Source: a virus (lineage: Duplodnaviria > Caudoviricetes). Taken from it: DNA of 64,000 nucleotides. Shown here piece by piece: positions 9,232 to 32,966 of the stretch. Position 1 is the stretch's first letter. Each line of letters starts with the position of its first letter. Under the pieces are notes generated by a model, which saw nothing but the letters and a program-made list of their open reading frames with translations, did no database searches and was not told where the DNA came from. The position numbers and the translations under genes are program-made. Where the stretch lies: positions 38,258 through 102,257 of the IMG/VR virus record IMGVR_UViG_3300038345_000094. One strand, 5' to 3'.

Positions 9232-9260
9232 TTGTAATTAAATAATATTTTGTATATTTG
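9232..9260 (+). promoter_or_regulatory. Bacteroidota sigma70-type promoter for the intron endonuclease
   Basis: TTG-N18-TATATTTG. Confidence 0.65.
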
Positions 9261-9276
9261 CAAAAATTATTTAATT

Positions 9277-10047
9277 ATGCAGAGTATAAAACAAAATCTT
9301 AAAAGAAGCGGTGTATATGTAATACTAAACAAGTTGAACAATCACCGCTATGTTGGAAGCAGTAAAAATATCTATAGTAGATTATTGAAGCATCGATCAT
9401 TACTTAGAACGGGTAAACACGAAAATTCTCATTTGCAAAACGCATGGGATAAATACACAGAATCAAATTTCGATTATGCGGTTTTGGAGTATTGTGAAAT
9501 AAATAAATTGTATGAAAGAGAACAATTTTTTATTGATACATTATCTCCAGAATACAATATCGCTCCACGTGCTGATTCTGCTGGATTTATTTCAGAAAAC
9601 ATGAGAAAAAATATGTCTATATCAAGAATTACTGGCATAAAAAACGGAAGTATTCCCAAGACGCACAATAAACCAATTTTTGTATACAATAAAAACGGGG
9701 AATTTGTCGGATATTGGGACTCAATTCGTAGTGCTTGTTTAGCTCTTAGAATAGACTATTCGTGTGTGCAAAGAGTAATAAAAGGCGAATATACACAAAC
9801 TTGCGGGTATAAATTCTTTTCCGAAAAACAAGACATCGTTGCTCCATTCAAAAAAGCAAAAGGCGAGCATGCAGTGCCAAGAAAAGTATTTGTATTCACT
9901 AGTGATGATGAAACGCTGAAATTTTACGGAATGGAAGAAGCCGCGAAATATTTCAATGTTACAATAAAGACACTTAGACAATATACTACTGGAAAACACA
10001 AATTTAAGAGAAAATATTATATAACATCGTATCTGCCGTGTGATTAA
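9277..10047 (+). CDS. GIY-YIG homing endonuclease with NUMOD1-like repeats
   Basis: SGVYVILN...YVGSS..IYSR..KH...HLQNAW...EREQ...YNI; AT-rich. Confidence 0.9.
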   Translation: MQSIKQNLKRSGVYVILNKLNNHRYVGSSKNIYSRLLKHRSLLRTGKHENSHLQNAWDKYTESNFDYAVLEYCEINKLYEREQFFIDTLSPEYNIAPRADSAGFISENMRKNMSISRITGIKNGSIPKTHNKPIFVYNKNGEFVGYWDSIRSACLALRIDYSCVQRVIKGEYTQTCGYKFFSEKQDIVAPFKKAKGEHAVPRKVFVFTSDDETLKFYGMEEAAKYFNVTIKTLRQYTTGKHKFKRKYYITSYLPCD

Positions 10048-11062: not shown

Positions 11063-11884
11063 ATGGTACATTCAAAAATAAAAGAAAATTTAGAACTGTT
11101 CGAAAGGCTTTTCAACGACGGATTAAGCGATTATAAGATCGCAAAAATATTAGGTTTAAACCACGCTACGATATTTCAGTTTCGCAAAAAGCATGGATAC
11201 ATTAGAGACTCTCTTCGCACTGCAAAAGCAAGAGAATTAACTAATGTGGAAATGGAAGTAATAATTGGATCTTTACTTGGCGATGGAAATATGCGACGAA
11301 CCGGGAAGAATGCTTCGTTCTGTATTGGACATGGTCCTAAACAAAAGGACTACTGCTTCTACAAAACGAAACTTCTTGAAGATTTAGGCGCAAAATTTTC
11401 ATATTCTAAAAGAAAAGTTCCAGATAAGCGTAATGGGAAATTGTATGACACCTATTGGTGTAGAGTTGGTGCAAATCCAAACTTTAATCCAATCTATGAA
11501 GAGTTCTATAAGGACGGGAAAAAACATATTCCAATGGAATTAGTAAACAATTATTTCTCTCGTCTTTCATTGGCCATATTGTATATGGATGATGGAAATA
11601 AAACAGAGAATGGCTATACCATAGCGACTATGTGCTTTGATAGAGATGAGATAAATGAATTTAGAGCATTCTTGCTGTTAAAATTCAATTTAGAAACTTC
11701 TGTATTTGGTGATGGTCGTTTATATATTATGGCTAAAAGTGCTGATTTGTTTACCGATTTAATAAAAGAGTATGTTATAGACAGTATGCAATACAAACTT
11801 CATAGCAGTCCTTGTAAAACTGGGTTAAAAAGGGGAACTCCTGAAAAGGACAATCCTTTGCCAAGCTCTGATTTAAATGGTTAG
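11063..11884 (+). CDS. LAGLIDADG homing endonuclease with N-terminal HTH
   Basis: IIGSLLGDG and LAILYMDDG motifs. Confidence 0.9.
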   Translation: MVHSKIKENLELFERLFNDGLSDYKIAKILGLNHATIFQFRKKHGYIRDSLRTAKARELTNVEMEVIIGSLLGDGNMRRTGKNASFCIGHGPKQKDYCFYKTKLLEDLGAKFSYSKRKVPDKRNGKLYDTYWCRVGANPNFNPIYEEFYKDGKKHIPMELVNNYFSRLSLAILYMDDGNKTENGYTIATMCFDRDEINEFRAFLLLKFNLETSVFGDGRLYIMAKSADLFTDLIKEYVIDSMQYKLHSSPCKTGLKRGTPEKDNPLPSSDLNG

Positions 11885-13013: not shown

Positions 13014-13940
13014 ATGGCATTTGGCACAAGTTCAGCAAAACCAGTCTTCACGCGGTACACAGGAATCGGTATCGCTAAGGTCGTTGGCATCAATCCGACG
13101 ATGAAAGAAATCAATGACGCTTTTGGTCGTGAAGTTTATACAAACGAGCCCACTTATACACAAGAAGTGGAATATGATGGAGTGAAGTCGAAGATGAGCA
13201 GGGTTTCCTTCCTGCTTAAATTCGAAGCCTCTGATAATATGGGATATTCTGATTTGCATTTTCTTACTATCTCCATTACCAATAAGGTTATCAAGAGTTC
13301 TGATACGACGAACCCCAAGGTTCAAGTGATTGATGAATTCGGCCGTACGGCATGGGTGACAGAAGATGAATTCAAAGAGAAGAAGATTCCAGTCTACTCC
13401 AATGGGCCAGCTAAGCTTACAAACAACTATCACGCTGTCTTGCGTGGCGAAGAGCGTCTTGTGAAGTTCATCTCTGCTGTCAGGGCTACTCCTAGCATCG
13501 ATGTATGGGATCCAGACGGCAAGTGTTGGGTTACTAACAAACGAGAAGATGCAGAAAACTGCAAGAAGGAGATTCCTAAGGAAGACATGAAGAAGATCCT
13601 GAATGGCGATTTCTCTCCTGTCCGCTCTTATCTTGAGGATGTCAAGGACAACAAGGTTAAAGTTGTTCTCGGCGTTCAGACAAGCAATGACGGTCGTCAG
13701 TATAACACCATTTATGACGGTGATTTCATGACTGTTTTCCAGAAGAAAACGACTAACATAGAGAAATCTGTGCGTGAAGCGCAGGCTAATGGGAGATATC
13801 CGAATACTGTCTTTACTTTTGGTCCGCTCGTAGAAGCAACATCTGTGAAGCCGGATGATTTATCAAAACCTGTTGATCCGGCTATCTCCTCACCTAGCGC
13901 ATCTTCTTTCAATCCTCTTGACGACCTCCCATTTGACTAA
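13014..13940 (+). CDS. single-stranded DNA-binding protein (putative)
   Basis: Acidic DDLPFD C-terminal tip; located between the ATPase and primase. Confidence 0.65.
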   Translation: MAFGTSSAKPVFTRYTGIGIAKVVGINPTMKEINDAFGREVYTNEPTYTQEVEYDGVKSKMSRVSFLLKFEASDNMGYSDLHFLTISITNKVIKSSDTTNPKVQVIDEFGRTAWVTEDEFKEKKIPVYSNGPAKLTNNYHAVLRGEERLVKFISAVRATPSIDVWDPDGKCWVTNKREDAENCKKEIPKEDMKKILNGDFSPVRSYLEDVKDNKVKVVLGVQTSNDGRQYNTIYDGDFMTVFQKKTTNIEKSVREAQANGRYPNTVFTFGPLVEATSVKPDDLSKPVDPAISSPSASSFNPLDDLPFD

Positions 13941-14899
13941 TGTTTGGCAAGGAGAAGAAAAAAACTCAAGATGATATAACTAACGAGATGCTGTTAGCAT
14001 ACTATTTCGATGTCTATCAAGTACCATGCGTGATAAAATCACCATTCCGTACTGACAGGAAGCCATCCTTTAGTTTCTATAAGACACAATCAGGGAATAT
14101 ACGATTCAATGATTTTGCTTCTGGAGAAAAAGGAACGCTTCTTGAGGCGATAGCACGATTGAAAGAAGTTGATGTTGACAATATCTGGCAAGTCATACGA
14201 GACGATTTTTCATCTCCAGACACCAAGCATTATTTTGAAGACGAACGTATGACAACCATCGTCAGAAACGATCGGAGAGAATTCCGTATCAAAGTAAGAC
14301 GATGGGAGTCTTACGATCTCGATTATTGGGCTTCTTTTGGCGTTAATTTGGACTTTCTTACACGAATGGAAGTGTACCCTATCTCGCATGTTTTCATTGA
14401 AAAGAACGGCATTTTATGGCCGTTTCCGTGCGATAAATATGCGTACGCTTATGTGGAAAGAAAAGAAGGATTCGTGTCATATAAGATATATCAGCCCTTT
14501 AATACGAGTGGAAGAAAATGGCAGACTAATATGGACAAAAGTACTATCGGCTTATGGACTAAACTCCCAGAAGCAGGAGATAAAGTATGCATCTGTTCAT
14601 CATATAAGGACGCTATGAGTCTGTGGTGCAACACTGGGATACCAGCCATCGCCATTCAAGCCGAAGGGTTTGACATGAGTGAACATGCACAGAATGATCT
14701 TCGAAAGAGATTCAAAGAGGTTATCATCATCTTGGATAACGATAGACCAGGAATTGAATACTCGCAGCGACTGCAAAAACAGACTGGCTTCAAGAACGTT
14801 ATCATACCTCCATTCGATGGGGGTAAAGACATCTCTGACTTATACAAAGCAATTGGAGACAGAGATACATTCAAGAAGAAAATACTTGAAATACTATGA
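13940..14899 (+). CDS. dnaG: DNA primase (TOPRIM)
   Basis: SPFRTDRKPSF N-terminal domain, SSYKD, LDNDRPG, GKDISD. Confidence 0.85.
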   Translation: MFGKEKKKTQDDITNEMLLAYYFDVYQVPCVIKSPFRTDRKPSFSFYKTQSGNIRFNDFASGEKGTLLEAIARLKEVDVDNIWQVIRDDFSSPDTKHYFEDERMTTIVRNDRREFRIKVRRWESYDLDYWASFGVNLDFLTRMEVYPISHVFIEKNGILWPFPCDKYAYAYVERKEGFVSYKIYQPFNTSGRKWQTNMDKSTIGLWTKLPEAGDKVCICSSYKDAMSLWCNTGIPAIAIQAEGFDMSEHAQNDLRKRFKEVIIILDNDRPGIEYSQRLQKQTGFKNVIIPPFDGGKDISDLYKAIGDRDTFKKKILEIL

Positions 14900-15123
14900 A
14901 ATTTGGCGTTAGATTCCAAAAAATGTTCGCTATGTTTCCCGATATCGATCGTACAAAGATCGCACATAATCGGGTTACTAAGCTTACTCGGCCGGAGATG
15001 TATGAAATCCTTCGCGGGATGAAGGCATCCGGCATAAAGACACCAGCTCAGCCTACTCGTACTGGCTCTGAGGAGATGCGGTCTTTCATCTTCACGATAA
15101 TCGATAAGAACGTCTCCAAGTAA
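14896..15123 (+). CDS. small basic protein heading the ligase operon
   Basis: ATGA overlap with primase, TAATG overlap with the ATP-grasp gene. Confidence 0.65.
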   Translation: MKFGVRFQKMFAMFPDIDRTKIAHNRVTKLTRPEMYEILRGMKASGIKTPAQPTRTGSEEMRSFIFTIIDKNVSK

Positions 15124-15965
15124 TGAAAGCGAAAAGAGTGTCTTTCCACCTGTCCTTAAGATCGCGGAACACATCAAACCGTGAATTGAAGGACATTGTC
15201 TGTCCTGTCAAGACTATCTATCGTATGGGCAGTACGACTCCTACTGACGAAATTACGCATCGTAGGACATTCATAGAGATTAACACCGCTGATGCGTGTC
15301 GTATCTCTTCGAATAAGATTCTGATGAAGCGTAGATTCTGCCATGGGAAAGTCCGTACTCCGCAATTCTATATGATGGTGAACAACAGTCTCGACGGGCT
15401 ACGCGCAAGGACGAAACACCGGCTGGGAAAGTGGCCTGCTGGCATCATTGCCAAAAGGTATAACTCCAGTAAGGGAAACGGGCTTGCCCTTATCAAGAGT
15501 ATGGATGATTTCGAAAACTTCGTTACGGGCAAGTCTACCAATGAGTTGTCCAAGTGGATTTTCGAAAGATACTCTACCTACACGCGTGAATATCGTCTTC
15601 ACGTGACAAATGATGGTTGCTTCTACGCGTGTCGTAAGATGTTGCGCAATGAAGCAGATGTCAGATGGCACCGTCATGACGAGAATTCCGTGTGGATCAC
15701 CGAAGAAAACGATCTTTTCGATAAACCAAGCAATTGGGATGACATAGTTAAAGACTGTGTCTCGGCTCTTAAGTCCGTAGGGCTTGATATCGCCGCATTT
15801 GACATCAAGGTGCAGCGTTCCAACGGGGATTCGCCTAAATGGCTTATCCTCGAGTGCAACAGTGCGCCGGGCTTGGGTACAATCGGATTGGAAAAATATA
15901 AAGAAGAAATCCCAAAACTCATAAATGTCAAATTAAATGAACAAAGATTACCTCAAAATCGTTGA
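15123..15965 (+). CDS. ATP-grasp amide ligase (RimK/phiEco32-like)
   Basis: IIAK..SSKGNG, FERY, EYRLHV, AFDI, ILECNSAPGL (ExN). Confidence 0.88.
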   Translation: MKAKRVSFHLSLRSRNTSNRELKDIVCPVKTIYRMGSTTPTDEITHRRTFIEINTADACRISSNKILMKRRFCHGKVRTPQFYMMVNNSLDGLRARTKHRLGKWPAGIIAKRYNSSKGNGLALIKSMDDFENFVTGKSTNELSKWIFERYSTYTREYRLHVTNDGCFYACRKMLRNEADVRWHRHDENSVWITEENDLFDKPSNWDDIVKDCVSALKSVGLDIAAFDIKVQRSNGDSPKWLILECNSAPGLGTIGLEKYKEEIPKLINVKLNEQRLPQNR

Positions 15966-16947
15966 TGCCGTAGGCTCTTCTAGTCACGGCGTCGATTCCA
16001 CGTTCTCTTGTTCTGGCGACAGTAACCTGCCGATGCTGACTCGAATTTGCTTCGGCTCTTTCACTAAGTCGTTTTGCAGCAAGCGGAAAGTCGACATCAC
16101 GGTAAGAATGTTCAAGAACATTTGGAAACAAGGCTGTTATAATTGCAGTAAGGGTGTCACTCCCTTTACTTGCGAAGAGATAGTCCAGTATCTGAATGAT
16201 CTTCGGAAGATCTTTCCGTTCGAATTCGAAGTCGAAGAAAAGACCATTCCTCACAAGAGGTACGAAAACATGCTTTTCTCCGGCCGCAATGAAGACAAGG
16301 TTGATGTCATCGATGTGACTTATCATATCGAAGGACCTCATATTGCCTTCATGTTCATCCTGTCGCTTCAGCGATTCCTCTATGCCTTTGGCGATTCGTT
16401 CTATCTCGCTCTCGCTTTCGAGATCAAGAATGGCGGCTATGGTTTCGATAAGATGAATCTCTTCAACATTCTGAATTGCGTCATCTCTACGACTCACTGC
16501 CGTTACATGGGGAATGATATGTATCATCTCAACCCAGAGAACTTCGTATATCTCCTTAACTCGAAAGACTTCAGGGAGATGCTTATCGCTCGTGAAGAAC
16601 TGGCGCAGCAGAAGTATGAAGACGGTTGTGCTGATCTTCATCTGAGTATGCCGTACGTTAATGACTCTCGTCTTAAGCGTATGCGTGTGGACAATCCGCA
16701 CCGCTTCACGTGCTTTAAAGAAGGAAACGATGATGCCAAGAAGGTAATACTTGACACTATTATCTTCAATCTCGGAATCCTCCGCGAGTACAACGGCTTC
16801 GGAGAGAAGGCGAAGATCAAGAGAGACGCCCTTGCGGCCAAGACAAAAGAGATATTCCGCGATCAAATCAATTGCTACGGCGAAAGAGAAGACAGCGATA
16901 TCATCTCCGTCAAGACACACATCGATGAAACCAGACTAGCCGAATGA
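15937..16947 (+). CDS. uncharacterised protein within the ligase operon
   Basis: 336-aa ORF overlapping both neighbours. Confidence 0.7.
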   Translation: MNKDYLKIVDAVGSSSHGVDSTFSCSGDSNLPMLTRICFGSFTKSFCSKRKVDITVRMFKNIWKQGCYNCSKGVTPFTCEEIVQYLNDLRKIFPFEFEVEEKTIPHKRYENMLFSGRNEDKVDVIDVTYHIEGPHIAFMFILSLQRFLYAFGDSFYLALAFEIKNGGYGFDKMNLFNILNCVISTTHCRYMGNDMYHLNPENFVYLLNSKDFREMLIAREELAQQKYEDGCADLHLSMPYVNDSRLKRMRVDNPHRFTCFKEGNDDAKKVILDTIIFNLGILREYNGFGEKAKIKRDALAAKTKEIFRDQINCYGEREDSDIISVKTHIDETRLAE

Positions 16948-17603
16948 AACGAAAAGTTTATGTCATTGGCCCCTATATGGGGTACGCGTCGTCCATAACC
17001 GACAAGCAACTTGTTGACAAGATCGAAGATGCAGATGTTGTCGTCCTTACTGGCGGCTCTGATGTCGATCCTTCGACTTATGGCAAGCCGTCCGAACCCG
17101 AGACTTACGGCAATAAGCAAAGAGATATCTTTGAGATTGCAGAGTATCGGAAGGTAAGAAAGGACCAAGTCGTTGTCGGTATCTGCCGTGGCGCCCAACT
17201 GCTTACTGCCCTTAATGGCGGTATTCTCGTACAGCATGTCACTGGACATTGCAACGGTATGCATAAGATGATCAGTACTGCAGGAGAAGTCTTTAGTATC
17301 ACATCTCTGCATCACCAGATGTGCTATCCTTTCGACATGCCGAAGAGCGATTACGAGGTACTGTTCACTTCGTATCCCGCTCGAAGCTCTGTTTACAAGG
17401 GCTCTGGAGTTGACACAGAGGTACTCGAAGCTCACGGTGAGCCAGAGATTATCCTCTATCACAAGGACACAGAGCCCATCGCACTGGCCGTTCAGGGTCA
17501 TCCTGAGATGATGGATATCGACAGTAAGACTGTCCGTATGTTCAACGATCTCATCGATGAATGCCTTGAAATGGCGAAGAAAAGACAAGAAATGGATGTT
17601 TAA
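16944..17603 (+). CDS. class I glutamine amidotransferase / peptidase C26 (PuuD-like)
   Basis: TGGSDV, GICRGAQ (nucleophile Cys), SLHHQ, VQGHPE (His-Glu). Confidence 0.9.
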   Translation: MKRKVYVIGPYMGYASSITDKQLVDKIEDADVVVLTGGSDVDPSTYGKPSEPETYGNKQRDIFEIAEYRKVRKDQVVVGICRGAQLLTALNGGILVQHVTGHCNGMHKMISTAGEVFSITSLHHQMCYPFDMPKSDYEVLFTSYPARSSVYKGSGVDTEVLEAHGEPEIILYHKDTEPIALAVQGHPEMMDIDSKTVRMFNDLIDECLEMAKKRQEMDV

Positions 17604-17619
17604 CCTATAAACTCTTGTT

Positions 17620-18471
17620 ATGATCTTACCTGCAATGCATTTCACGATCGGAGCTGATCCTGAGATGTTTATCATCAACACGAAAACTGGAGAAGTTGTC
17701 TCCGCGATCGGTCTTATCCCGGGCGAAAAAGGACACCCTTGGGTAGATCCGAACTGGTTTGAAGGATTCGGTCTTGAAATAGACAATATCCTTGCGGAGT
17801 ACAACATCCCTCCTGTGTCGAGGAAAGAGGACTTCATTAGCGCAATCAACTTCATGAAGGATTACATCGATGCTTATGTCAAGAAGACCAATCCTGACTA
17901 TGGCATTCTTTGTGCTTCTTCGAAGATGGTACCTGAAGACCAACTCGACAATCCTATCGCCAAACTGTTCGGTTGTTGCCCAGACTTCAACTGCTACACT
18001 GGCGCTCCTAATCCACGTCCGAAGGGCGAGATGACCAATCTTCGCTCTGCGGGATTTCATGTGCATTATGGCTACGAGAACCCTGACATCGACACCTCCG
18101 TCGAGATGGTGAAGTATTTCGATGTCTTCCTTGGGCTTATGTCGTTATTCTTTGATACCGACCGGAAGCGTCGCTCCCTGTATGGCAAGGCTGGCTGCTA
18201 TCGACTCACCTCTTATGGTGTGGAGTATCGCACCCTGTCTTCCAAGATGGGCGAAACCGACGAGACGATTGGCCTCATCTATGACGGCGTTCTCGCTGCC
18301 ACTCAGGCATATGAAATCGACTTGCATATCCATTGCCAGCCGGACGTCATCACAGCTATCAACAACAGCGATATGCTGATGGCTCGTGCTATCCTGTCAA
18401 CCATTCGGAAATCAACCGATAAAAACACTTTCATCTATTCTTACTTGTCGAACGTCCTTAAAATCAAGTAA
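17620..18471 (+). CDS. phiEco32-like COOH-NH2 ligase type 2
   Basis: TIGADPEMF, DNILAEYN, FGCCPDFN, RSAGFHVH, YGKAG.YR, YGVEYRTLS. Confidence 0.9.
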   Translation: MILPAMHFTIGADPEMFIINTKTGEVVSAIGLIPGEKGHPWVDPNWFEGFGLEIDNILAEYNIPPVSRKEDFISAINFMKDYIDAYVKKTNPDYGILCASSKMVPEDQLDNPIAKLFGCCPDFNCYTGAPNPRPKGEMTNLRSAGFHVHYGYENPDIDTSVEMVKYFDVFLGLMSLFFDTDRKRRSLYGKAGCYRLTSYGVEYRTLSSKMGETDETIGLIYDGVLAATQAYEIDLHIHCQPDVITAINNSDMLMARAILSTIRKSTDKNTFIYSYLSNVLKIK

Positions 18472-18473
18472 CA

Positions 18474-20012
18474 ATGTGTGGATTATTCGGCATATTAAGT
18501 AAAGAGAAAGTTACGATTGACAAGCGGGCGATTGCTGTTCTTGGTCTAGCCAATGACAGCAGAGGCGGTGATGCATGTGGACTGTTTATCGATGGTCAAG
18601 TCGAATATGGCACAGAAAAGGAACTTGTTAACTTCTTCAACTTCTTCCAACAGAGTGAGTTGTTCAAGGTCTCCCAGAAAGCCAATGTTGTTCTTGGCCA
18701 TTGTAGAAAAGCGTCTGTCGGTGGCAAAGCTGCAGATAAGGCGCAACCGGTAGTTATCAAGGAAGGAGAGGAAATCAAGTTCGTCCTGCTTCATAACGGG
18801 ACAATCAAAAACTATTCCGATCTGGCGAAGAAGTATATCCCTGATGTCGATACAACCGGGATGTCCGACTCGCAAATCATGGCTCGCATCTTCTATGATG
18901 TTGGCTATGACTGCCTTGGTGAGTATAATGGCGGAGCCGTTTTCGTTGCTGCTGATTATCGTGGCGAAAAGCCAGTAATCAGACTGTGGCGAGGATGGGC
19001 CAAAGAATATAGTTATAGCAAGGAGATGACAGCAGAACGCCCTCTCTACTTGACTATGTTCAACAACAGACTCGTATTCTCTTCTATCAGTGAAGTCTTA
19101 CAGGCTTTGTACCCCTTTAGCGAGGTTAAGACTGTCAGGCCGAACTCACTTTGTGTCTTTAGCGACGGTAAGTTCTACGTCGAACGAGAGTTTGACAGGT
19201 CTTCCTGCCTACAGACCCCGACTTCATACTCGTCTACCAGTAATGCTTACACTGATGATAGGCAATATTATAACGGGTATGGCTCGCATCAAACGGGCGG
19301 CGGGTACGTCTACGACTCGCGTAAGGCCAAAGCAAAAGAAGAAGAAACGAAAAAGACGACATTGACTCCCGGTATGGGCTTCTCTGCTAGCCGACTTCTG
19401 TACGATGACAATGTTGATCTCACGGGATACCAAGATTCCGTCTATTGCGACGAGAATTTCTTGGTTTACTATGTTAACGCCCTCAATCGCGGTGTTAGCA
19501 GATCTGAGTTCATCCCCTCAACGTGCAAGTTGCTTCATGGCATCTATAACTTGAACTCCATTGGTTTCATCAAGAACGACAAGCCGAACGACGATAAGTG
19601 CTTCAATTTCGCATTCTATAACGGAATACTGTTGAAAAGTGTCGACTGCTTTAAGTTCTTGCAGAAACTTGCGAAGATGTGGTGCGTGAATTTCGCTGAT
19701 ATGGGAAATCTCGCTCCGTATCTCGTGGAGGCTCTCGCTATGTATCCGGTGCCAAAAGACCAAGGCGGCGTTAGTAACATTTTCCATATGATAGATCCAG
19801 ATAACGATTTCTCCGAGGTGGTCGTAGATGGCGATGCTACTTATCCCATCGCGCTCACTCAGAGGACTGTCAAGTTTGACCATGGGATTATCTCCAATGT
19901 CTCGAAATCGACGGTCTTCACGGACACCTTCGACTATGCGAAGAAAATCGCCGGGTCTTACATCATCGACAACAAATCAATCCTCGCATTTTTAGATACG
20001 GCATATGATTGA
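18474..20012 (+). CDS. class II (Ntn) glutamine amidotransferase with C-terminal extension
   Basis: MCGLFG (Cys2), SRGGDACG, GHCRKAS, HNGTI, SDSQ. Confidence 0.9.
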   Translation: MCGLFGILSKEKVTIDKRAIAVLGLANDSRGGDACGLFIDGQVEYGTEKELVNFFNFFQQSELFKVSQKANVVLGHCRKASVGGKAADKAQPVVIKEGEEIKFVLLHNGTIKNYSDLAKKYIPDVDTTGMSDSQIMARIFYDVGYDCLGEYNGGAVFVAADYRGEKPVIRLWRGWAKEYSYSKEMTAERPLYLTMFNNRLVFSSISEVLQALYPFSEVKTVRPNSLCVFSDGKFYVEREFDRSSCLQTPTSYSSTSNAYTDDRQYYNGYGSHQTGGGYVYDSRKAKAKEEETKKTTLTPGMGFSASRLLYDDNVDLTGYQDSVYCDENFLVYYVNALNRGVSRSEFIPSTCKLLHGIYNLNSIGFIKNDKPNDDKCFNFAFYNGILLKSVDCFKFLQKLAKMWCVNFADMGNLAPYLVEALAMYPVPKDQGGVSNIFHMIDPDNDFSEVVVDGDATYPIALTQRTVKFDHGIISNVSKSTVFTDTFDYAKKIAGSYIIDNKSILAFLDTAYD

Positions 20013-21288
20013 ATTCATCAATAGATCCAATCAACCCTATCCGGAGGGGAAGACAGATACGATCGTAGCGATCAAAGATAATGAACTTCATTTCAAGCTG
20101 AAGAACACCAACAGCAAGGCAAGGATGCTCTCCGTTGGAGATAATCTCTTCCCGCTGGATGATGATCTCGTGCTGTCTGGAGTCGACCTTATGTTCTCGT
20201 CCAACTATGGACATTATGTAATGGTATCCAAGGGCGACATCCCTACGGATCACATTATCTTAGGTCGTGGTCGCTATCCGTATTCCTTCTCTCGGGAGTA
20301 CGAAGCTGTGCGCCATTTCGATATCTTCAAGGATACTGCAGAACTGGTAGATCCCAAGAAGCTCCGCCTCGTATCGCCGACTCATACTTTCGGCATCGAG
20401 TTCGAAACATCTGCTGGCTATCTTCCGCAAGAGCTGTGTTTCAAAACGGGTCTCATTCCGTTAAGAGACGGTTCGATTGGTGCCTGTGAGTACTCCACAA
20501 TCGTCTTGAAGGGTGCTCAAGGTCTCGACCTGCTTCGTAAGCAGGCCGACACGCTGAAGCAGTACACTGTCTTTGACAAGGAGTGTGCGCTTCATATGCA
20601 CCTCGGTGGATTTCCACTCTCCTCAAAGGCTTTGTTCATCCTTTATGCCATGTGCTTCTACCTCGAGAGAAACATGTATGAGAACATGATTCCTCGGCTG
20701 TCGTTCAGAACGGCAGACTACAAGGCAAATGGCAAGGATTACTGCCTTAAACTGCCAGAGTTCCATTCCTTCTTAGACCTGTATAAGTTCTTCGTTGGAA
20801 GAGACTATGGCGGTAGTCTCAGCCAGCCGCATCCCGATGATCCTACTCGGGAGCGTAAATGGCAGATTCACAACAGGTATTATGGGTTAAACCTGATCAA
20901 CATGTTGTGCTATAAGTCTCCCAAGACCGTAGAATTTCGGTTTTTACGGCCGACATATAACTGGAAGAAGCTGTTCTTCTGGGTATATTACTTCGATATG
21001 CTCCTCTGTATTGCCGAGAAGCTGCAACAGAAGTTAATCAACAAGGAGTTTACCTATATCTTCGATGCCGTTTATAAGTTCATGGCGAAAATGCCGCCAA
21101 CTGAGCTGATTAACGACTATACGGATAATGAATCCCTGCGGGCCTTCATGAAGGGCATGATGAAAGCCAATGCGGCTGTTGTCAACAGTCAGGGTCAAGT
21201 GAACGACTTCTGTGGCAGACGTATCGACATTGAAGATGTCATTATCAACAGGTGGTTCTACGACTCCGGGATCGACTTGGAGAAGTAA
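20005..21288 (+). CDS. putative amidoligase (glutamine synthetase/GCS fold)
   Basis: TFGIEFET, RDGSI, EY, HMH, RYYGLN, TVEFR. Confidence 0.85.
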   Translation: MIEFINRSNQPYPEGKTDTIVAIKDNELHFKLKNTNSKARMLSVGDNLFPLDDDLVLSGVDLMFSSNYGHYVMVSKGDIPTDHIILGRGRYPYSFSREYEAVRHFDIFKDTAELVDPKKLRLVSPTHTFGIEFETSAGYLPQELCFKTGLIPLRDGSIGACEYSTIVLKGAQGLDLLRKQADTLKQYTVFDKECALHMHLGGFPLSSKALFILYAMCFYLERNMYENMIPRLSFRTADYKANGKDYCLKLPEFHSFLDLYKFFVGRDYGGSLSQPHPDDPTRERKWQIHNRYYGLNLINMLCYKSPKTVEFRFLRPTYNWKKLFFWVYYFDMLLCIAEKLQQKLINKEFTYIFDAVYKFMAKMPPTELINDYTDNESLRAFMKGMMKANAAVVNSQGQVNDFCGRRIDIEDVIINRWFYDSGIDLEK

Positions 21289-21293
21289 CCTGA

Positions 21294-21755
21294 ATGTCTA
21301 GCAATAAAAAGGTAAAGAATGCCAGCCCAACAAAAGCGGATGGGATAGAATTCAAATCCCGGTTAGAAGCAAACACTTATAAGCGGCTGAAAGACGAAGG
21401 TTTTTCACCGCAATATGAGCGATTGTATTTTGACCTGATAGACGCATTCTATCCCCGTAGCGCTTGTTACGATAAGCACTACGACCGCTCTTTGAAGGAC
21501 AAAGTGTTTGGTCTTAACACCGTTAAAGTCCAAGCCATTACCTACACGCCAGATTTTACCTTTATGTACAAAGATAGACTCATAGTCATCGAGTGCAAAG
21601 GTAAACCGAATGACGTGTTTCCACTCAAGAAAAAGCTCTTTCGTAGGTGGATGGATAAATACACCCATCTTACGGGAGTGAGTATCTTATACTTCGAAAT
21701 TCATTCTCTGGATGAATTAGAAGAGAGCATCGAAGTAATTCGATCGCTAAACTGA
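21294..21755 (+). CDS. PD-(D/E)XK endonuclease (DUF1064 / T7 endonuclease I-like)
   Basis: FKSRLEA, ITYTPDF, IECKG. Confidence 0.8.
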   Translation: MSSNKKVKNASPTKADGIEFKSRLEANTYKRLKDEGFSPQYERLYFDLIDAFYPRSACYDKHYDRSLKDKVFGLNTVKVQAITYTPDFTFMYKDRLIVIECKGKPNDVFPLKKKLFRRWMDKYTHLTGVSILYFEIHSLDELEESIEVIRSLN

Positions 21756-22116: not shown

Positions 22117-23191
22117 TCGAAAATCAATCCTTGACATCGCCTGGAATGTGCCTGAAGAGACATATCGAAGCGACCCGTCGTATCACTATTCTTTGCTGTC
22201 AGATTTTCGAAATAAGGGCATTCATTTCGCGAATGAACTACTGAATCCACCCGAGGAGAGAAAGCCCTCCAAATCGCTTATTTTCGGGTCTCTCGTTGAT
22301 GCTATGCTTACCGACGAGAGTAAACTGGAGCAGTTCGAGAATATCGGCAGAGAAGAAGACGTAGTAAAACTCACGGCCACAGAGTTAAAGGTGGCAACAT
22401 ATATACTTGAGAACCAAGATTTCTTCCCGCTTCAATTATTGAAGACAGACTCTGGTATATTCTATCAATGTTTCGTCGATTGTGATGCATATACGACAAG
22501 TAAGCCTCAGACAATTCTTGACAAACACGGAGACAGAATACTTGATTATCTCGAGAAGTCTCTTGTGATAACTGGAGATAAATACCAAGTCACCGAGGAA
22601 GACTGGGTTGATGCGCTTGAATGCAAGGCAGCTATACTCGAATCATCAATGGGGAAGTACTTCAATGCTCTCCCGTTTGATGGTGATATTGAACGAGTGA
22701 ATCAGCTCAAGTTGAAATGGAGAGATCCGAAGACCGGAATCACTTATCGAGTGATGCTTGATAATGTCTATGTAGATCATGACAATAAGATAATCCAGCC
22801 TAATGATGTGAAGACGTCCTCTTCTTACGAGGACGAGTTTTACAATAGTTTCATCAAATGGAATTATGACATTCAGGCTAGATTATATTGGCGTGTCCTG
22901 TATAACATACTCAAGGAAGACCCGTATTTCAAGGACTTCACGATTCTACCATTCCAGTTCTTGGTTGTTTCAAGATATTCCAAAACGCCTATCATATGGC
23001 GTTACGACGATTGTGTAAAACCCGGAGAGCTTGTCTACCACAAGCGCAACGGAAGTGTGATCGTCCTCGAAGATCCTTTTGATATTGGATTCAGACTGCA
23101 GAAGGCAGCAGACAGAGCCTGTGCCATACAGGAAGGCATCTCTACCGTAAGCAGCAATCTGATTGAGTATTGGATCGAAAATGGCAGCTAA
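22109..23191 (+). CDS. PD-(D/E)XK exonuclease (RecE/DUF3799-like)
   Basis: FGSLVD, RVMLD, DVKTS, YDIQARLY. Confidence 0.8.
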   Translation: MASRKSILDIAWNVPEETYRSDPSYHYSLLSDFRNKGIHFANELLNPPEERKPSKSLIFGSLVDAMLTDESKLEQFENIGREEDVVKLTATELKVATYILENQDFFPLQLLKTDSGIFYQCFVDCDAYTTSKPQTILDKHGDRILDYLEKSLVITGDKYQVTEEDWVDALECKAAILESSMGKYFNALPFDGDIERVNQLKLKWRDPKTGITYRVMLDNVYVDHDNKIIQPNDVKTSSSYEDEFYNSFIKWNYDIQARLYWRVLYNILKEDPYFKDFTILPFQFLVVSRYSKTPIIWRYDDCVKPGELVYHKRNGSVIVLEDPFDIGFRLQKAADRACAIQEGISTVSSNLIEYWIENGS

Positions 23192-23850
23192 TGATTAAAT
23201 ACGTAACAAAACGAGACGGTAAAGTTCAGGAATTCACGAGTGATAAAATCCTCAATGCAATCAAGAAGGCTTTCAAGGAAGTCTTCGGTGATGAAGATGT
23301 ATCTGAGAAGATAAGTACCGCATTTGCGTCGGTAATGGCTAGGATTGAAAGCCTGCCAGACAAGACGCATATCGAGAAAATCCAAGATATCATTGAGGAG
23401 GAGCTCATACATACTGGACAACTCAATGTTGCGAGGAAGTTCATAGCTTACCGCAATCAGCGTAATCTCGCCAGAAAAGCAGACACTATCAAGATTTTCG
23501 ATAGTATCATTCAGGCACAAGCAAACGATATCACTAGAGAGAATGCGAATATGAACGCAGATACTCCCGCTGGTATGATGATGAAGTTTGCTTCTGAGAC
23601 AACTAAGACTTATGTCGATGAAGTACTCCTTTCACCGGATGTGGCTGATGCTGTGAAGAACAATATCATTCATATTCACGACAAGGATTACTATCCTACG
23701 AAGTCACTTACTTGTCTTCAGCATCCGCTTGATAGATTACTTAAGAACGGATTTGTTTGTGGGCATGGCGAGGCTAGACCAGCGAAACGAATAGAGACAG
23801 CTACTGCGCTTACAGAAGTGTCTCTGCAGGCCATACAAAATGAGATGCAT
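23191..23850 (+). CDS. nrdD: anaerobic ribonucleoside-triphosphate reductase, exon 1 (ATP-cone)
   Basis: VTKRDG ATP-cone, ENAN, IHIHDKDYY, TC, QNEMH. Confidence 0.92.
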
Positions 23851-23988
23851 AGATTACTGTGCATGCTATCAGTAATGATAGAAAAATATAAACGATGTGA
23901 ACCGGTTCATCAGCCGGGTGTGACGAAAGTTGCTAACGGGAGAAAAGCCCAATATCCCGTGCTAAGCTTCACTTTTTGTTGATTTTTC

Positions 23989-24019
23989 TTGCATATGTCA
24001 AATATTATTCTTATATTTG
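23989..24019 (+). promoter_or_regulatory. Bacteroidota sigma70-type promoter for the intron endonuclease
   Basis: TTG-N20-TATATTTG. Confidence 0.65.
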
Positions 24020-24023
24020 TATT

Positions 24024-24554
24024 ATGAAGAAAATTAATGAATTATTCAGTCTTGAATGGGCGTCAGATTGCTATTTTATTGACGATGATCTTAATATCGT
24101 TAATATAAAGACAGGTAATCTAAAATCGAAAACCATAGGGAAAAGAGGCTATTACTATGTTACCCTTAATAGAAGAGATGATAATAAACAAATTAAAGTA
24201 TATTATCATAAAATCGTAGCATTAGCCTTTATTCACAATGGACCATATGATGTGATTAATCACATAGATGGAAATAAATTAAACGACTCTGTTTCGAATT
24301 TAGAATTTTGTTCTCAGAAGCACAATGTACAACATGCTTTTAAGACAAAACTTGTGAATAGAAATGAGAAAAAGTTTTTAATTCGATTTTTAGATGGCGG
24401 TGAATGTGTAATGACAGCAAAAGACGCAAATAACATTATTGGTATCCCAAGGGTTACGTTATATGACTTATATTATAAGCATTCTCGTTCTCCTAAGTGG
24501 TCTATAGCTGAAGTAATAAGTGAAGAAAGTGTAGAGACTATCGAAAGCAAATAA
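24024..24554 (+). CDS. HNH homing endonuclease
   Basis: HKIVALAF...INHIDGNKLND..SNLEF...HNVQH. Confidence 0.88.
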   Translation: MKKINELFSLEWASDCYFIDDDLNIVNIKTGNLKSKTIGKRGYYYVTLNRRDDNKQIKVYYHKIVALAFIHNGPYDVINHIDGNKLNDSVSNLEFCSQKHNVQHAFKTKLVNRNEKKFLIRFLDGGECVMTAKDANNIIGIPRVTLYDLYYKHSRSPKWSIAEVISEESVETIESK

Positions 24555-24665
24555 CCGCATAAGGAGTTATTTGCAAGTAGAGTAGGACGGAGATGATGCC
24601 GTCCGAAGCGCATCGGGCCCTACGCGTGAAGGCGAGGGCTGTGAGATAGTCCATAAGAACCTATG

Positions 24666-26240
24666 GGTGGGCAATCTATTCCTGCAATTGATTTCTATCT
24701 TGCGCCGTTTGTGAAGATGGCATTCAAAGAAGAACTCAAGAAAATAGCGGAACTGTATCCCCATATACCTAAAGATGCATTCGTCAAGGAACTTGATGTT
24801 GATGTTAAGGAATACATAAAGAAAGAAGTCGATCCTAAGAGTTCTACACACGATATGATTATCCAGTATGCGATTAATCGTACCGTTGATAGGGTTCATC
24901 AGGCGATTGAAAGCTTTATCCATAATGCCAATATCATTCATTCTCGTGGCGGAAATCAGGTTGTATTCTCGTCGATTAACTTCGGTACAGATACATCACC
25001 TGAAGGTCGTTGCATCATCAGAGAGATTCTCAACTGTACTTATGAAGGAGTTGGTTTCGGTTCTACCGCAATCTTCCCGATTAGCATTCTGAAAATCAAA
25101 GATGGTGTCAATGTCAAGCCGGGTGATCCTAACTACGATCTGTTCAAGTTTGCCTGCAGGGTGACAGCAAAGCGCTTCTTCCCTAACTTCCTGAATCTCG
25201 ATGCTTCTTATAACGTCGATGATGCGTGGAAACCAGATGATCCGATGAGATATATGCATGAAGTCGCAACCATGGGTTGTAGAACTCGCGTGTATGGCAA
25301 TCTCTTCGGCCCTAAGACATCTGTCGGTAGAGGTAATCTTAGCTTCACTACTGTTAATATTGTTCGTCTTGCGCTGGAGTGTATGGATATCAAGGATAAA
25401 GAAGAGCGCATCAACGCATTCTTTCGCAAGTTCGATCTTGCCCTTGATATCGCGGCAAAACAGCTTAATGAGAGGTATAACTTCCAAGCCACTGGTGTTG
25501 CAAAACAATTCCCTATGCTTATGAGCGGAATGTGGCTTGGTAGTGAGAATCTCAAACCTGACGATCCAGTCGGTCCTGTGTTGAATCAAGGCACTCTGTC
25601 GATGGGATTCATTGGGCTGGCTGAATGCCTGATTGCACTCATTGGTAAGCACCACGGCGAAAGCGAAGAGGCTCAACAGCTTGGATTGAGTATTATCTCC
25701 CACATGAGAGAGAAAGTGGATGGCTATTCACAGAAGTATCAGCATAACTATACTCTTCTTGCCACTCCGGCAGAAGGACTTGCTGGGCGTTTCACGAAGA
25801 AAGATAGGCAAGTGTTCGGCTCCATTCCCGGAGTTACTGATAAGGATTACTATACTAATTCAAGCCATGTTCCTGTGTATTATAAGTGTACACCGGAGCA
25901 CAAGGCGAAGATTGAAGGGCCTTACCATAAGTACGAGAATGCTGGACATATCTTCTACGTGGAGATGAATGGTGATGCCACGCACAACCCTGAAGCGATT
26001 GAGCAGATTGTTTCGCTTATGAGGAAGTATGATATCGGTTACGGTTCTATCAACCACAACAGATATCGCTGCCTCGATTGTGGTTATGAAACTGCCACAA
26101 AAGATATGAAGGAATGCCCGCGTTGCGGTAGTAAGAATATTGATATGCTTCAGCGTATAACTGGCTATCTTGTTGGCACTACTAACCGCTGGAATTCCGG
26201 TAAACTCGCTGAATTGCGAGATAGAGTAACGCACGGATGA
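24666..26240 (+). CDS. nrdD: anaerobic ribonucleoside-triphosphate reductase, exon 2
   Basis: MGCRT, GRGNLSF, ATPAEG, YYTNS, two CxxC, QRITGYL glycyl-radical loop. Confidence 0.95.
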   Translation, partial: GGQSIPAIDFYLAPFVKMAFKEELKKIAELYPHIPKDAFVKELDVDVKEYIKKEVDPKSSTHDMIIQYAINRTVDRVHQAIESFIHNANIIHSRGGNQVVFSSINFGTDTSPEGRCIIREILNCTYEGVGFGSTAIFPISILKIKDGVNVKPGDPNYDLFKFACRVTAKRFFPNFLNLDASYNVDDAWKPDDPMRYMHEVATMGCRTRVYGNLFGPKTSVGRGNLSFTTVNIVRLALECMDIKDKEERINAFFRKFDLALDIAAKQLNERYNFQATGVAKQFPMLMSGMWLGSENLKPDDPVGPVLNQGTLSMGFIGLAECLIALIGKHHGESEEAQQLGLSIISHMREKVDGYSQKYQHNYTLLATPAEGLAGRFTKKDRQVFGSIPGVTDKDYYTNSSHVPVYYKCTPEHKAKIEGPYHKYENAGHIFYVEMNGDATHNPEAIEQIVSLMRKYDIGYGSINHNRYRCLDCGYETATKDMKECPRCGSKNIDMLQRITGYLVGTTNRWNSGKLAELRDRVTHG

Positions 26241-32111: not shown

Positions 32112-32966
32112 ATGGATATAACGCAAGTAACTAAATGGTCACGAGCGTTAAAAGCAGCAAGGCGTACCCAAGGCAAGGAAGATAACGGTAAGGAACCTTC
32201 TAAGTCTTGGGTCGCCAAGATGCTTTTGGCCGAACATTCTCCGATTCGTCTTGTCGAATATGAGTGGGTATGGGAATCCATCAAACAATGGGTCACCGTG
32301 CATCTCGTACGACATTTCCTCGGGTGTGAGAAGTTCGTCCATTCACAACGACAAGACCGTAGAGAGCTAGAAGTACCGAGAGATGAGTTACCGCAAGGTG
32401 CGGAGAATGATATGATGATGTCTGCTAACGCGCAGGCATTAATCAACATCTCCAGAAAGCGCCTCTGCTCGTGTGCGTCTCCTGAAACTCGTGCGAAGTG
32501 GCAAGAAGTAAAGGATGCTATGTGGGAAATTGATCCTATCATGGCGTCCAGAATGGTGCCTGAGTGTCAATATCGTGGATTCTGCCCGGAGTTTATGAAA
32601 GACAACTGTGGGTTTTATATGTCTCAAGCGTATATCCTGCAGCGACTGGACTACTGTAGCAAATGTCAACCACAGAGGTGGGCGAAAATAGATGATTCTT
32701 GCTTCTGGATATCAGACAATGGTGTCGTCATCGACGATGAGCGCCACGAAAAACTGACTGAAGATACTTATGTTTTCTTCCGAGAAAGCCCCGTTAAGTA
32801 TCGGATGTCAGGAACTGTTATCTTTGTGCAAATCGGAAGTACGTATTATCCTGTTGCTCATATCATGTGCAAGTCATTCGGTGTTAGATGGGCTCACGAA
32901 CTGAAAAATAGCAATCCGTTCGACCTGTCATTAACCAACGTGTGTGTGAATGAGGGGGGCCAGTAA
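32112..32966 (+). CDS. thyX: FAD-dependent thymidylate synthase with C-terminal extension
   Basis: AEHSPIR, HLVRH...SQR, NAQALINISRKRLC, CPE. Confidence 0.8.
   Translation: MDITQVTKWSRALKAARRTQGKEDNGKEPSKSWVAKMLLAEHSPIRLVEYEWVWESIKQWVTVHLVRHFLGCEKFVHSQRQDRRELEVPRDELPQGAENDMMMSANAQALINISRKRLCSCASPETRAKWQEVKDAMWEIDPIMASRMVPECQYRGFCPEFMKDNCGFYMSQAYILQRLDYCSKCQPQRWAKIDDSCFWISDNGVVIDDERHEKLTEDTYVFFRESPVKYRMSGTVIFVQIGSTYYPVAHIMCKSFGVRWAHELKNSNPFDLSLTNVCVNEGGQ

Follow-up and report, generated by a model that had tools for sequence, protein, structure and literature searches.

The subject of this analysis is a block of seven open reading frames (ORFs) at positions 14896-21288 of a 64,000-nucleotide stretch of DNA, hereafter the window. 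It covers the 3'-terminal 64 kb of IMG/VR record IMGVR_UViG_3300038345_000094, a complete virus genome of 102,257 bp with direct terminal repeats that belongs to an uncultured crAss-like gut phage. The block is a crAss-lineage copy, and an architectural variant, of the known phage amidoligase cassette. It encodes five enzymes, namely an ATP-grasp ligase (GRASP), a class I enzyme of the Peptidase C26 type (GAT1), a phiEco32-type COOH-NH2 ligase type 2 (LIG), a class II N-terminal nucleophile (Ntn) amidotransferase (GAT2) and an Amidoligase_2-type ligase (AML). These are accompanied by a protein of 75 residues and by a protein of 336 residues, referred to as U336, which belongs to an unnamed superfamily. 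Three of the five enzymes are ATP-dependent carboxylate-amine ligases of different folds (GRASP, LIG and AML) and two are thiol amidohydrolases (GAT1 and GAT2), and unrelated phages carry them together as one set.

The same primase-proximal site, gene order and family content are found in the crAss-like phage cr108_1 (NC_055878, gp027-gp034; Steigviridae, Asinivirinae). Its genes follow the order primase, small ORF, ATP-grasp ligase, two unknown proteins, class I enzyme, type 2 ligase, class II enzyme and AML, then uracil-DNA glycosylase (UDG) and nucleases. The cr108_1 version differs from that of the window in that U336 is represented by two paralogues and that the small ORF at its start is unrelated. 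This architecture was thus already deposited and annotated in GenBank, and the novelty of the block is much lower than the initial annotation implied. At the same site, the cultured Cellulophaga phage phi14:2 (NC_021806, g037-g041; likewise Steigviridae, Asinivirinae) carries a shorter set made of a gamma-glutamyl cyclotransferase (GGCT), the ATP-grasp ligase, the type 2 ligase, the class II enzyme and AML, with neither class I enzyme nor U336. The enzymes of cr108_1 are 39-45% identical to those of the window and the enzymes of phi14:2 32-37%. In both phages a UDG gene lies directly 3' of the cassette (L001:12762-13400, L009:9948-10658); it is absent at window positions 21288-21294, where a resolvase-like gene follows instead. 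The two phages are the sole Crassvirales records of the phage collection that match the cassette, in agreement with the earlier statement that these genes are not part of the crAss core set.

Enzyme families and catalytic motifs

The families and intact catalytic motifs initially proposed for the five enzyme genes were confirmed by searches of Pfam, PHROG and NCBIfam and by alignments (E-values are given in brackets). The ATP-grasp gene (15123..15965, + strand like the six other ORFs and the two flanking genes; 280 residues) codes for a RimK/GshB-like carboxylate-amine ligase of a phage clade. It matches phrog_2599 (7e-29), a family annotated as S6-modifying, and its Pfam matches (ATPgrasp_ST and R2K_2) are sub-threshold only. 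The motifs E.R.H, GLD..A.D and E.N.AP are conserved in the alignment, the last containing an intact ExN. The protein is 45% identical to gp028 of cr108_1, 37% to g038 of phi14:2 and 51% to its counterparts in five viral contigs of 117-197 kb (L011-15), which form a quite different group.

The class I enzyme (16944..17603, 219 residues) matches Peptidase_C26 (1.8e-16, 61 bits for a cut-off of 20.5 bits) ten orders of magnitude better than the generic GATase family (6e-6), and it also matches phrog_7218 (1e-28). In NCBIfam it comes closest to gamma-glutamyl-CDP-amidate hydrolase (1.9e-6) and PuuD (3.8e-5), with scores far under the cut-offs of these families. The catalytic triad is invariant in relatives and consists of Cys81 (GICRGAQ) with His186 and Glu188 (GHPE).

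The type 2 ligase (17620..18471, 283 residues) has a GCS2/glutamine-synthetase (GS)-like fold and matches PF14395 (2.7e-11, 43.6 bits for a 25-bit cut-off) and phrog_3815 (1e-59). It was above the cut-off in a search of its own genome as well. The motifs G.D.E.F (GADPE), DN..E, FGC, H.H, R and YG.E.R (EYR) are invariant. This family is abundant, with 319 phage records recovered by tblastn and 1696 relatives among metagenome proteins at E<=1e-5.

The class II enzyme (18474..20012, 512 residues) consists of a glutaminase domain (residues 1-250), a low-complexity linker (~250-320) and a C-terminal domain (~320-512). The matches to GATase_6 (6e-14) and GATase_7 (4e-8) are both over the cut-offs and are confined to residues 1-210, with Pfam alignments over residues 67-209, and NCBIfam matches were obtained to the N-terminal parts of purF, asnB and glmS. 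Cys2 (MCG), Arg78, Asn108-Gly109 and Asp132 are invariant. No synthase or acceptor domain was recognized by Pfam, PHROG and NCBIfam, whose matches all end by residue ~236. The C-terminal domain (~190-200 residues) aligns with close relatives only, and three homologues were retrieved by word index. An AlphaFold2 model of GAT2 built from six sequences reached a predicted local distance difference test (pLDDT) score of 41, and nothing usable was retrieved from the ESM Atlas with the last 200 residues.

The last enzyme, AML (20005..21288, 427 residues), matches phrog_2443 (1e-7), and its match to PF12224 (1.1e-3, 19.4 bits) falls under the 22-bit cut-off. Its assignment to Amidoligase_2 is nevertheless secure, because eight of its nine aligned homologues match PF12224 (best 2.7e-8) and because the columns G130, E132 and E134 (GxExE), H197 and H199 (HxH) and E310, F311 and R312 (EFR) are invariant. 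AML is 40% identical to gp034 of cr108_1 and 32% to g041 of phi14:2, which is annotated as 'amidoligase enzyme'; its N- and C-terminal extensions are lineage-specific. A sequence search of solved structures returned no relative of the ATP-grasp ligase, of the type 2 ligase profile, of AML or of the 75-residue protein.

Conservation and gene order of the cassette

The initial annotation grouped these genes into one system, and their co-conservation was indeed found at several levels of relatedness. At the closest level, all seven ORFs are intact and in the same order in two metagenome contigs (L004 and L005), with identities of 57-85% for the enzymes, 51-56% for the 75-residue protein and 46-50% for U336. 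At the nucleotide level, the block has no match in the phage collection. Further away, the contigs L011-15 carry ATP-grasp, U336-like, class I, type 2 ligase, class II and AML genes in that order.

At the broadest level, hidden Markov models (HMMs) were built for each family from the loci found, with a GGCT model derived from four phage GGCTs, and 45 loci with a type 2 ligase were scanned. Thirty-two of these were contigs from genome bins whose taxonomic labels vary widely; the contigs may be of phage origin and have ended up in bacterial bins. In 26 of the 45 loci a stretch of 8 kb holds all five enzyme families, and the exceptions are mostly short or truncated contigs. At least three gene orders recur: GRASP-U336-GAT1-LIG-GAT2-AML (order A), which is that of the window; LIG-x-AML-GAT2-small-GRASP-GGCT (order B) in LUZ24-like and Vibrio phages; and GAT1-GRASP-GAT2-LIG-x-AML (order C). 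Wherever both partners were detected, GAT2 adjoins AML, as in most loci, or the type 2 ligase.

GGCT is a common but not universal member of the cassette. In agreement with the initial annotation, which had noted its absence, the GGCT model detected no such gene in the window block, nor in any locus of the U336 type. The gene is present in phi14:2, in Pseudomonas phage NV1, in Leptolyngbya phage Lbo-JY46 and in others.

Separately, the type 2 ligase gene is interrupted by an insertion in three of the five related contigs L011-15 (L011:10046-11052, the same in L012, and L013:10046-10191) and is uninterrupted in L014 and L015. The L011 insertion encodes an endonuclease of 289 residues (phrog_4645, 1e-34).

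The U336 family

U336 (15937..16947) has no match in Pfam, PHROGs or NCBIfam. Its 32 close relatives, whose longest contigs range from ~1 kb to ~100 kb, have no Pfam match either. Among 1.84 billion representatives, a search by profile extended the superfamily to 56 members, which correspond to no Pfam or PHROG family and in which Cys38 and Arg146 are the only invariant residues. An HMM built from this wider set retrieves gp030 (2.5e-18) and gp029 (2.6e-15) of cr108_1. Single-protein scans of IMG/VR with the type 2 ligase and U336 returned nothing, as did a scan with the fusion protein P0166 described below, and a scan with the U336 alignment returned one IMG/VR fragment and two metagenome loci.

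The fold was approached through an AlphaFold2 model (pLDDT 86). Foldseek gave no match in the PDB at E<=0.001, and a profile search of PDB sequences was also empty. The best score of a wide VIA-align comparison (Z 5.4) is inside the chance range of the tool, and ESM Atlas scores were <=0.80. Among predicted viral structures, the strong matches (E 1e-8 to 1e-6) come from two crAss-like phages only, with two unknown cassette proteins in cr108_1 and two proteins in ctelJ1. The longest structural alignments, though weak, were to PafA/Dop, at Z 4.9 (199 residues) and Z 4.3 (186 residues), scores under the chance level of the tool. U336 was considered as a third GS-fold ligase and rejected as such, the hhalign probability against the type 2 ligase being 0.4% and the PafA/Dop scores being under chance level.

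Wherever the U336 gene was found, it lies directly 5' of that of the class I enzyme. Three metagenome proteins of 479-487 residues (P0166, P0169 and P0187) are natural fusions of an N-terminal class-I-like half and a U336 domain. The class-I-like half, which the GAT1 model recognizes at E 1e-10 to 3e-8, has another residue in place of the nucleophile cysteine and is catalytically dead. Complex prediction of U336 with the class I enzyme gave a score of 0.01, which speaks neither for nor against binding. Finally, no locus holds both U336, present in about 12 lineages, and GGCT, present in 12 loci. The open literature searched makes no mention of the U336 family, of its class I linkage or of its fusions, though its cr108_1 members are publicly deposited.

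The 75-residue protein

The first ORF of the block (14896..15123) codes for a basic protein with a net charge of about +8, whose stop codon overlaps the start of the ATP-grasp gene (TAATG). It has no match in Pfam, PHROG, NCBIfam or PDB. It is conserved at the same position in L004 and L005, as stated above, and does not align with the 80-residue protein found at the equivalent position in cr108_1. Other lineages often have small ORFs 5' of the ATP-grasp gene; these come from several families, DUF7195 among them (a small NV1 protein), and none is related to the 75-residue protein. Neither this protein nor its position-equivalents have a conserved acidic C-terminus, and their C-termini vary (NVSK, KLVG, SKMS).

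A role as carrier or substrate of the pathway, on the model of LysW/LysX, RimK/S6 or the graspetide precursors, finds no support, relatives being restricted to close kin and the C-terminus being neither conserved nor acidic. Its inclusion among the members of the pathway in the initial annotation is unproven and concerns a lineage-specific gene. It is not counted here as a demonstrated component, because it is conserved only in the closest relatives and has no acidic C-terminus. Probably this small protein binds nucleic acid or acts as a regulator in its own lineage, and is not a substrate.

A possible pathway

It may be proposed, mostly by inference and with a little less than even confidence, that the cassette is a self-contained pathway for the assembly and subsequent trimming of a small molecule or short tag, amide-linked and derived from Glu/Gln, in the infected cell and during the replication phase. 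From the chemistry of their folds, each ligase would convert a carboxylate into an acyl-phosphate and join it to an amine. The Ntn enzyme would transfer ammonia from glutamine to the adjacent GS-fold ligase, and at least one step would make a carboxamide because of this delivery of ammonia. The C26-type enzyme might cleave a gamma-glutamyl amide bond, as do PuuD and gamma-glutamyl-CDP-amidate hydrolase, and would thereby free the product or remove a protecting or carrier group. In other versions of the cassette, this removal of gamma-glutamyl would be performed by GGCT. U336 would be a partner of the C26-type enzyme in the present variant, as a substrate-binding or regulatory subunit.

The earlier suggestion that the class I enzyme covers the step of the absent GGCT fits the curated matches to gamma-glutamyl-amide hydrolases, as well as the gene content of phi14:2, where GGCT is present and both the class I enzyme and U336 are missing; it would be read here as a candidate assignment. 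An unnamed family in the place of GGCT, together with the several gene orders, points to the removal of gamma-glutamyl as the variable part of the cassette. A bolder version of the proposal is improbable. In it, U336 would be a new enzyme or an obligate subunit of the C26-type enzyme that functionally replaces GGCT, and the gut-phage cassette would then make a chemically different gamma-glutamyl-derived metabolite directed against the host or its defences.

Several observations weigh against the build-and-trim proposal. A role as second ammonia donor is just as possible for the class I enzyme, because the distinction between C26 and GATase rests on sub-threshold curated matches. The mutual exclusion of U336 and GGCT may be mere descent, because all cassettes with U336 have one gene order and perhaps form a single clade. 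The five-enzyme core may be smaller than proposed, because no ATP-grasp gene was detected 5' of U336 in five loci (L017-L021); in three of these genome-bin loci an ORF of 237-345 residues precedes U336 instead (L017:5548-6582, L018:3671-4639, L020:4672-5382). These upstream ORFs and the accessory proteins of NV1 have no Pfam match, except for the DUF7195 protein of NV1. The C-terminal domain of GAT2, which would be expected to bind the acceptor or a partner, has no recognisable fold. Lastly, the pathway as a whole is read from sequence.

Alternative targets

The initial annotation had listed a protein, the envelope, DNA, tRNA and an anti-defence metabolite as possible targets. Sequence cannot narrow this list, except that DNA modification receives no support.

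The modification of proteins, by tagging or by addition of poly-amino acids, is fairly unlikely. The ligases would add Glu-type residues or a peptide tag, as do RimK on S6, PafA/Dop and the tubulin-type glutamylases, and the C26-type enzyme would be a trimming isopeptidase. The S6-modifying annotation of the PHROG matched by the ATP-grasp ligase is consistent with such an activity, as is the membership of both GS-fold ligases in the fold class of PafA/Dop. The GGCT-fold enzymes of other cassettes are reported to include gamma-glutamylamine cyclotransferases, which act on gamma-glutamyl-lysine. The ATP-grasp ligase also has a weak match to the R2K_2 clade, which was proposed to modify proteins in phage-host conflict (Burroughs et al. 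2015). However, two glutamine-hydrolysing enzymes would be superfluous for this purpose, and no target presents itself. The cassette is not accompanied by a conserved small protein whose C-terminus is consistently acidic or Gln, and the ORFs that precede the ATP-grasp gene are unrelated between lineages.

It is quite improbable that the cassette amidates or extends a peptidoglycan precursor, in the manner of MurT/GatD or AsnB/LtsA, in order to block superinfection or to tune lysis. In its favour, the two amidotransferases, of class I and class II and each with an ATP-dependent ligase as neighbour, recall the two known amidations of the stem peptide. The proposal itself is credited to Iyer et al. 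2009 in papers that cite them, and is a prediction only. Nevertheless, the cassette proteins are outside the Mur-ligase and AsnB synthetase families, and no lipid-II-related or membrane-associated gene is linked to them. A single envelope substrate is also less likely because the phages with the cassette are labelled with widely different hosts, from cyanobacteria, Proteobacteria and Bacteroidota to the candidate phyla of metagenome-assembled genome bins and to reports of archaeal viruses.

A similarly low probability is given to the modification of nucleotides, DNA or tRNA, through which phage DNA would contain an amidated or amino-acid-bearing base or nucleotide. Position is the argument for it. 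The cassette is inside a module of replication and nucleotide metabolism, right after the primase gene in the window, cr108_1 and phi14:2, and just 5' of the primase/helicase genes in NV1; it is upstream of these genes in an Alcaligenes phage too. The UDG gene which follows it in cr108_1 and phi14:2 points in the same direction. This neighbourhood may, however, only reflect the temporal order of genes, and in L011-15 no recognisable replication gene was matched among the nine flanking ORFs scanned. In addition, neither TGT/DpdA (PF01702) nor a ThyA-like hydroxymethylase (PF00303) was detected in the complete 102-kb genome, in searches whose positive controls fired; an ordinary ThyX is the only enzyme of this kind. 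To our knowledge, none of the known enzymes of thymidine or deazaguanine hypermodification comes from the families of the cassette. As to the ThyX-type thymidylate synthase itself (window positions 32112-32966), it is a divergent member whose profile match covers only the C-terminal 55 positions (E 3.6e-8).

Least probable of all is a counter-defence or host-takeover metabolite tied to nicotinamide adenine dinucleotide (NAD) or another depleted cofactor, the cassette serving to rebuild or mimic a small molecule destroyed by host immunity: in Lbo-JY46 the cassette lies directly 3' of PncB-like and PrsA-like genes (L002:1754-5963), but this adjacency is found in single lineages, auxiliary genes often cluster, and NadE was not found in five genomes with the cassette (the window phage, cr108_1, phi14:2 and two of the L011 type). 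The PncB-like/PrsA-like pair resembles the published phage pathway of NAD reconstitution. The Lbo-JY46 cassette contains, besides its GGCT, more than one class I enzyme.

Setting within the replication gene array

Between 12 and 33 kb, the window consists of a single co-directional array of replication and nucleotide-metabolism genes. It encodes, in order, a Sak4-like annealing protein, the primase, the seven-ORF block, a resolvase-like nuclease, a PD-(D/E)XK exonuclease, an NrdD split by an HNH ORF, a metallophosphoesterase and a dUTPase. The DNA primase gene (13940..14899; phrog_12622, 2e-46) overlaps the start of the 75-residue ORF by 4 nt, and 5 nt separate the end of AML from the gene of the Holliday-junction resolvase-like nuclease (21294..21755; phrog_190, 1.6e-16). 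Within the block, the successive junctions are overlaps of 1, 29 and 4 nt, gaps of 16 and 2 nt, and an overlap of 8 nt.

Scans for promoters (sigma-70-type and a Bacteroidota-type pattern) and for terminators detected no signal separating the seven genes from the primase or the nucleases. The seven genes are therefore a block inside a longer array and not a delimited operon. The ORFs, coordinates, overlaps and abutments described in the initial annotation are correct, and it is the delimitation as a seven-gene operon that has to be abandoned for lack of boundary signals.

The array and its surroundings contain several endonuclease genes. The anaerobic ribonucleotide reductase NrdD is encoded in two parts, N-terminal (23170-23982) and C-terminal (24663-26240), with an HNH endonuclease ORF (23976-24554) between them. 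This split looks like an intron or the insertion of a homing endonuclease. Upstream, the helicase region contains a homing endonuclease ORF of the GIY-YIG type (9250-10047) and an ORF of the LAGLIDADG type (11063-11884).

Significance and comparison with known systems

Among phage gene sets with a clear enzymology but no known product, this cassette is one of the more widespread, and solving it would reveal new phage-host chemistry. The copy in the window adds little on its own because the phage is uncultured. The crAss-like phage phi14:2 is cultured and has the cassette at the same site, which makes the system genetically testable, and the fusions of U336 with the class I enzyme provide a concrete pair of proteins for biochemistry.

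The cassette underlies the Pfam families PF14395 and PF12224. It was reportedly predicted in 2009 by Iyer, Abhiman, Burroughs and Aravind, by genome comparison. In later genome papers it appears as a set of auxiliary genes without an assigned function, for which a part in cell-wall modification or in secondary metabolites is considered possible. No experimental identification of its product appeared in the open literature searched, within which the earlier statement that product and substrate are unreported still holds.

Three known systems invite comparison. In pupylation, PafA and Dop share with the two GS-like ligases of the cassette a carboxylate-amine ligase fold class, and the cassette has no Pup-like protein. 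In putrescine utilization by Escherichia coli, the GS-like ligase PuuA acts with the C26 hydrolase PuuD, and in butirosin synthesis the ATP-grasp ligase BtrJ acts with the GGCT-fold enzyme BtrG; in both cases gamma-glutamyl groups are added and later removed. The same fold logic, in which a GS-like or ATP-grasp ligase is paired with a C26 or GGCT remover, may apply to the cassette, and the presence of GGCT in its other versions, notably beside the ATP-grasp gene, recalls this alternation of addition and removal. The resemblance is an analogy only: there is no orthology, the matches being far under the cut-offs, and the cassette contains two more ligases as well as an Ntn amidotransferase.

The closest correspondence is with the cassettes of the phiEco32/LUZ24/PaP3 type. 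These differ from the block of the window in having order B, a GGCT gene and a gene of ~190 residues between the type 2 ligase and AML, both of which are missing in the window, where U336 is present instead; the enzymes of the two types are 22-37% identical. Both are phage-borne, tightly packed and located among early or replication genes, and the phiEco32/LUZ24/PaP3 type likewise often includes a class I/C26 enzyme. The link to the predicted clusters of phiEco32-like phages drawn in the initial annotation is borne out by the enzyme families held in common, namely the type 2 ligase, the Amidoligase_2 enzyme, the class II amidotransferase beside a GS-like ligase, and the ATP-grasp ligase.

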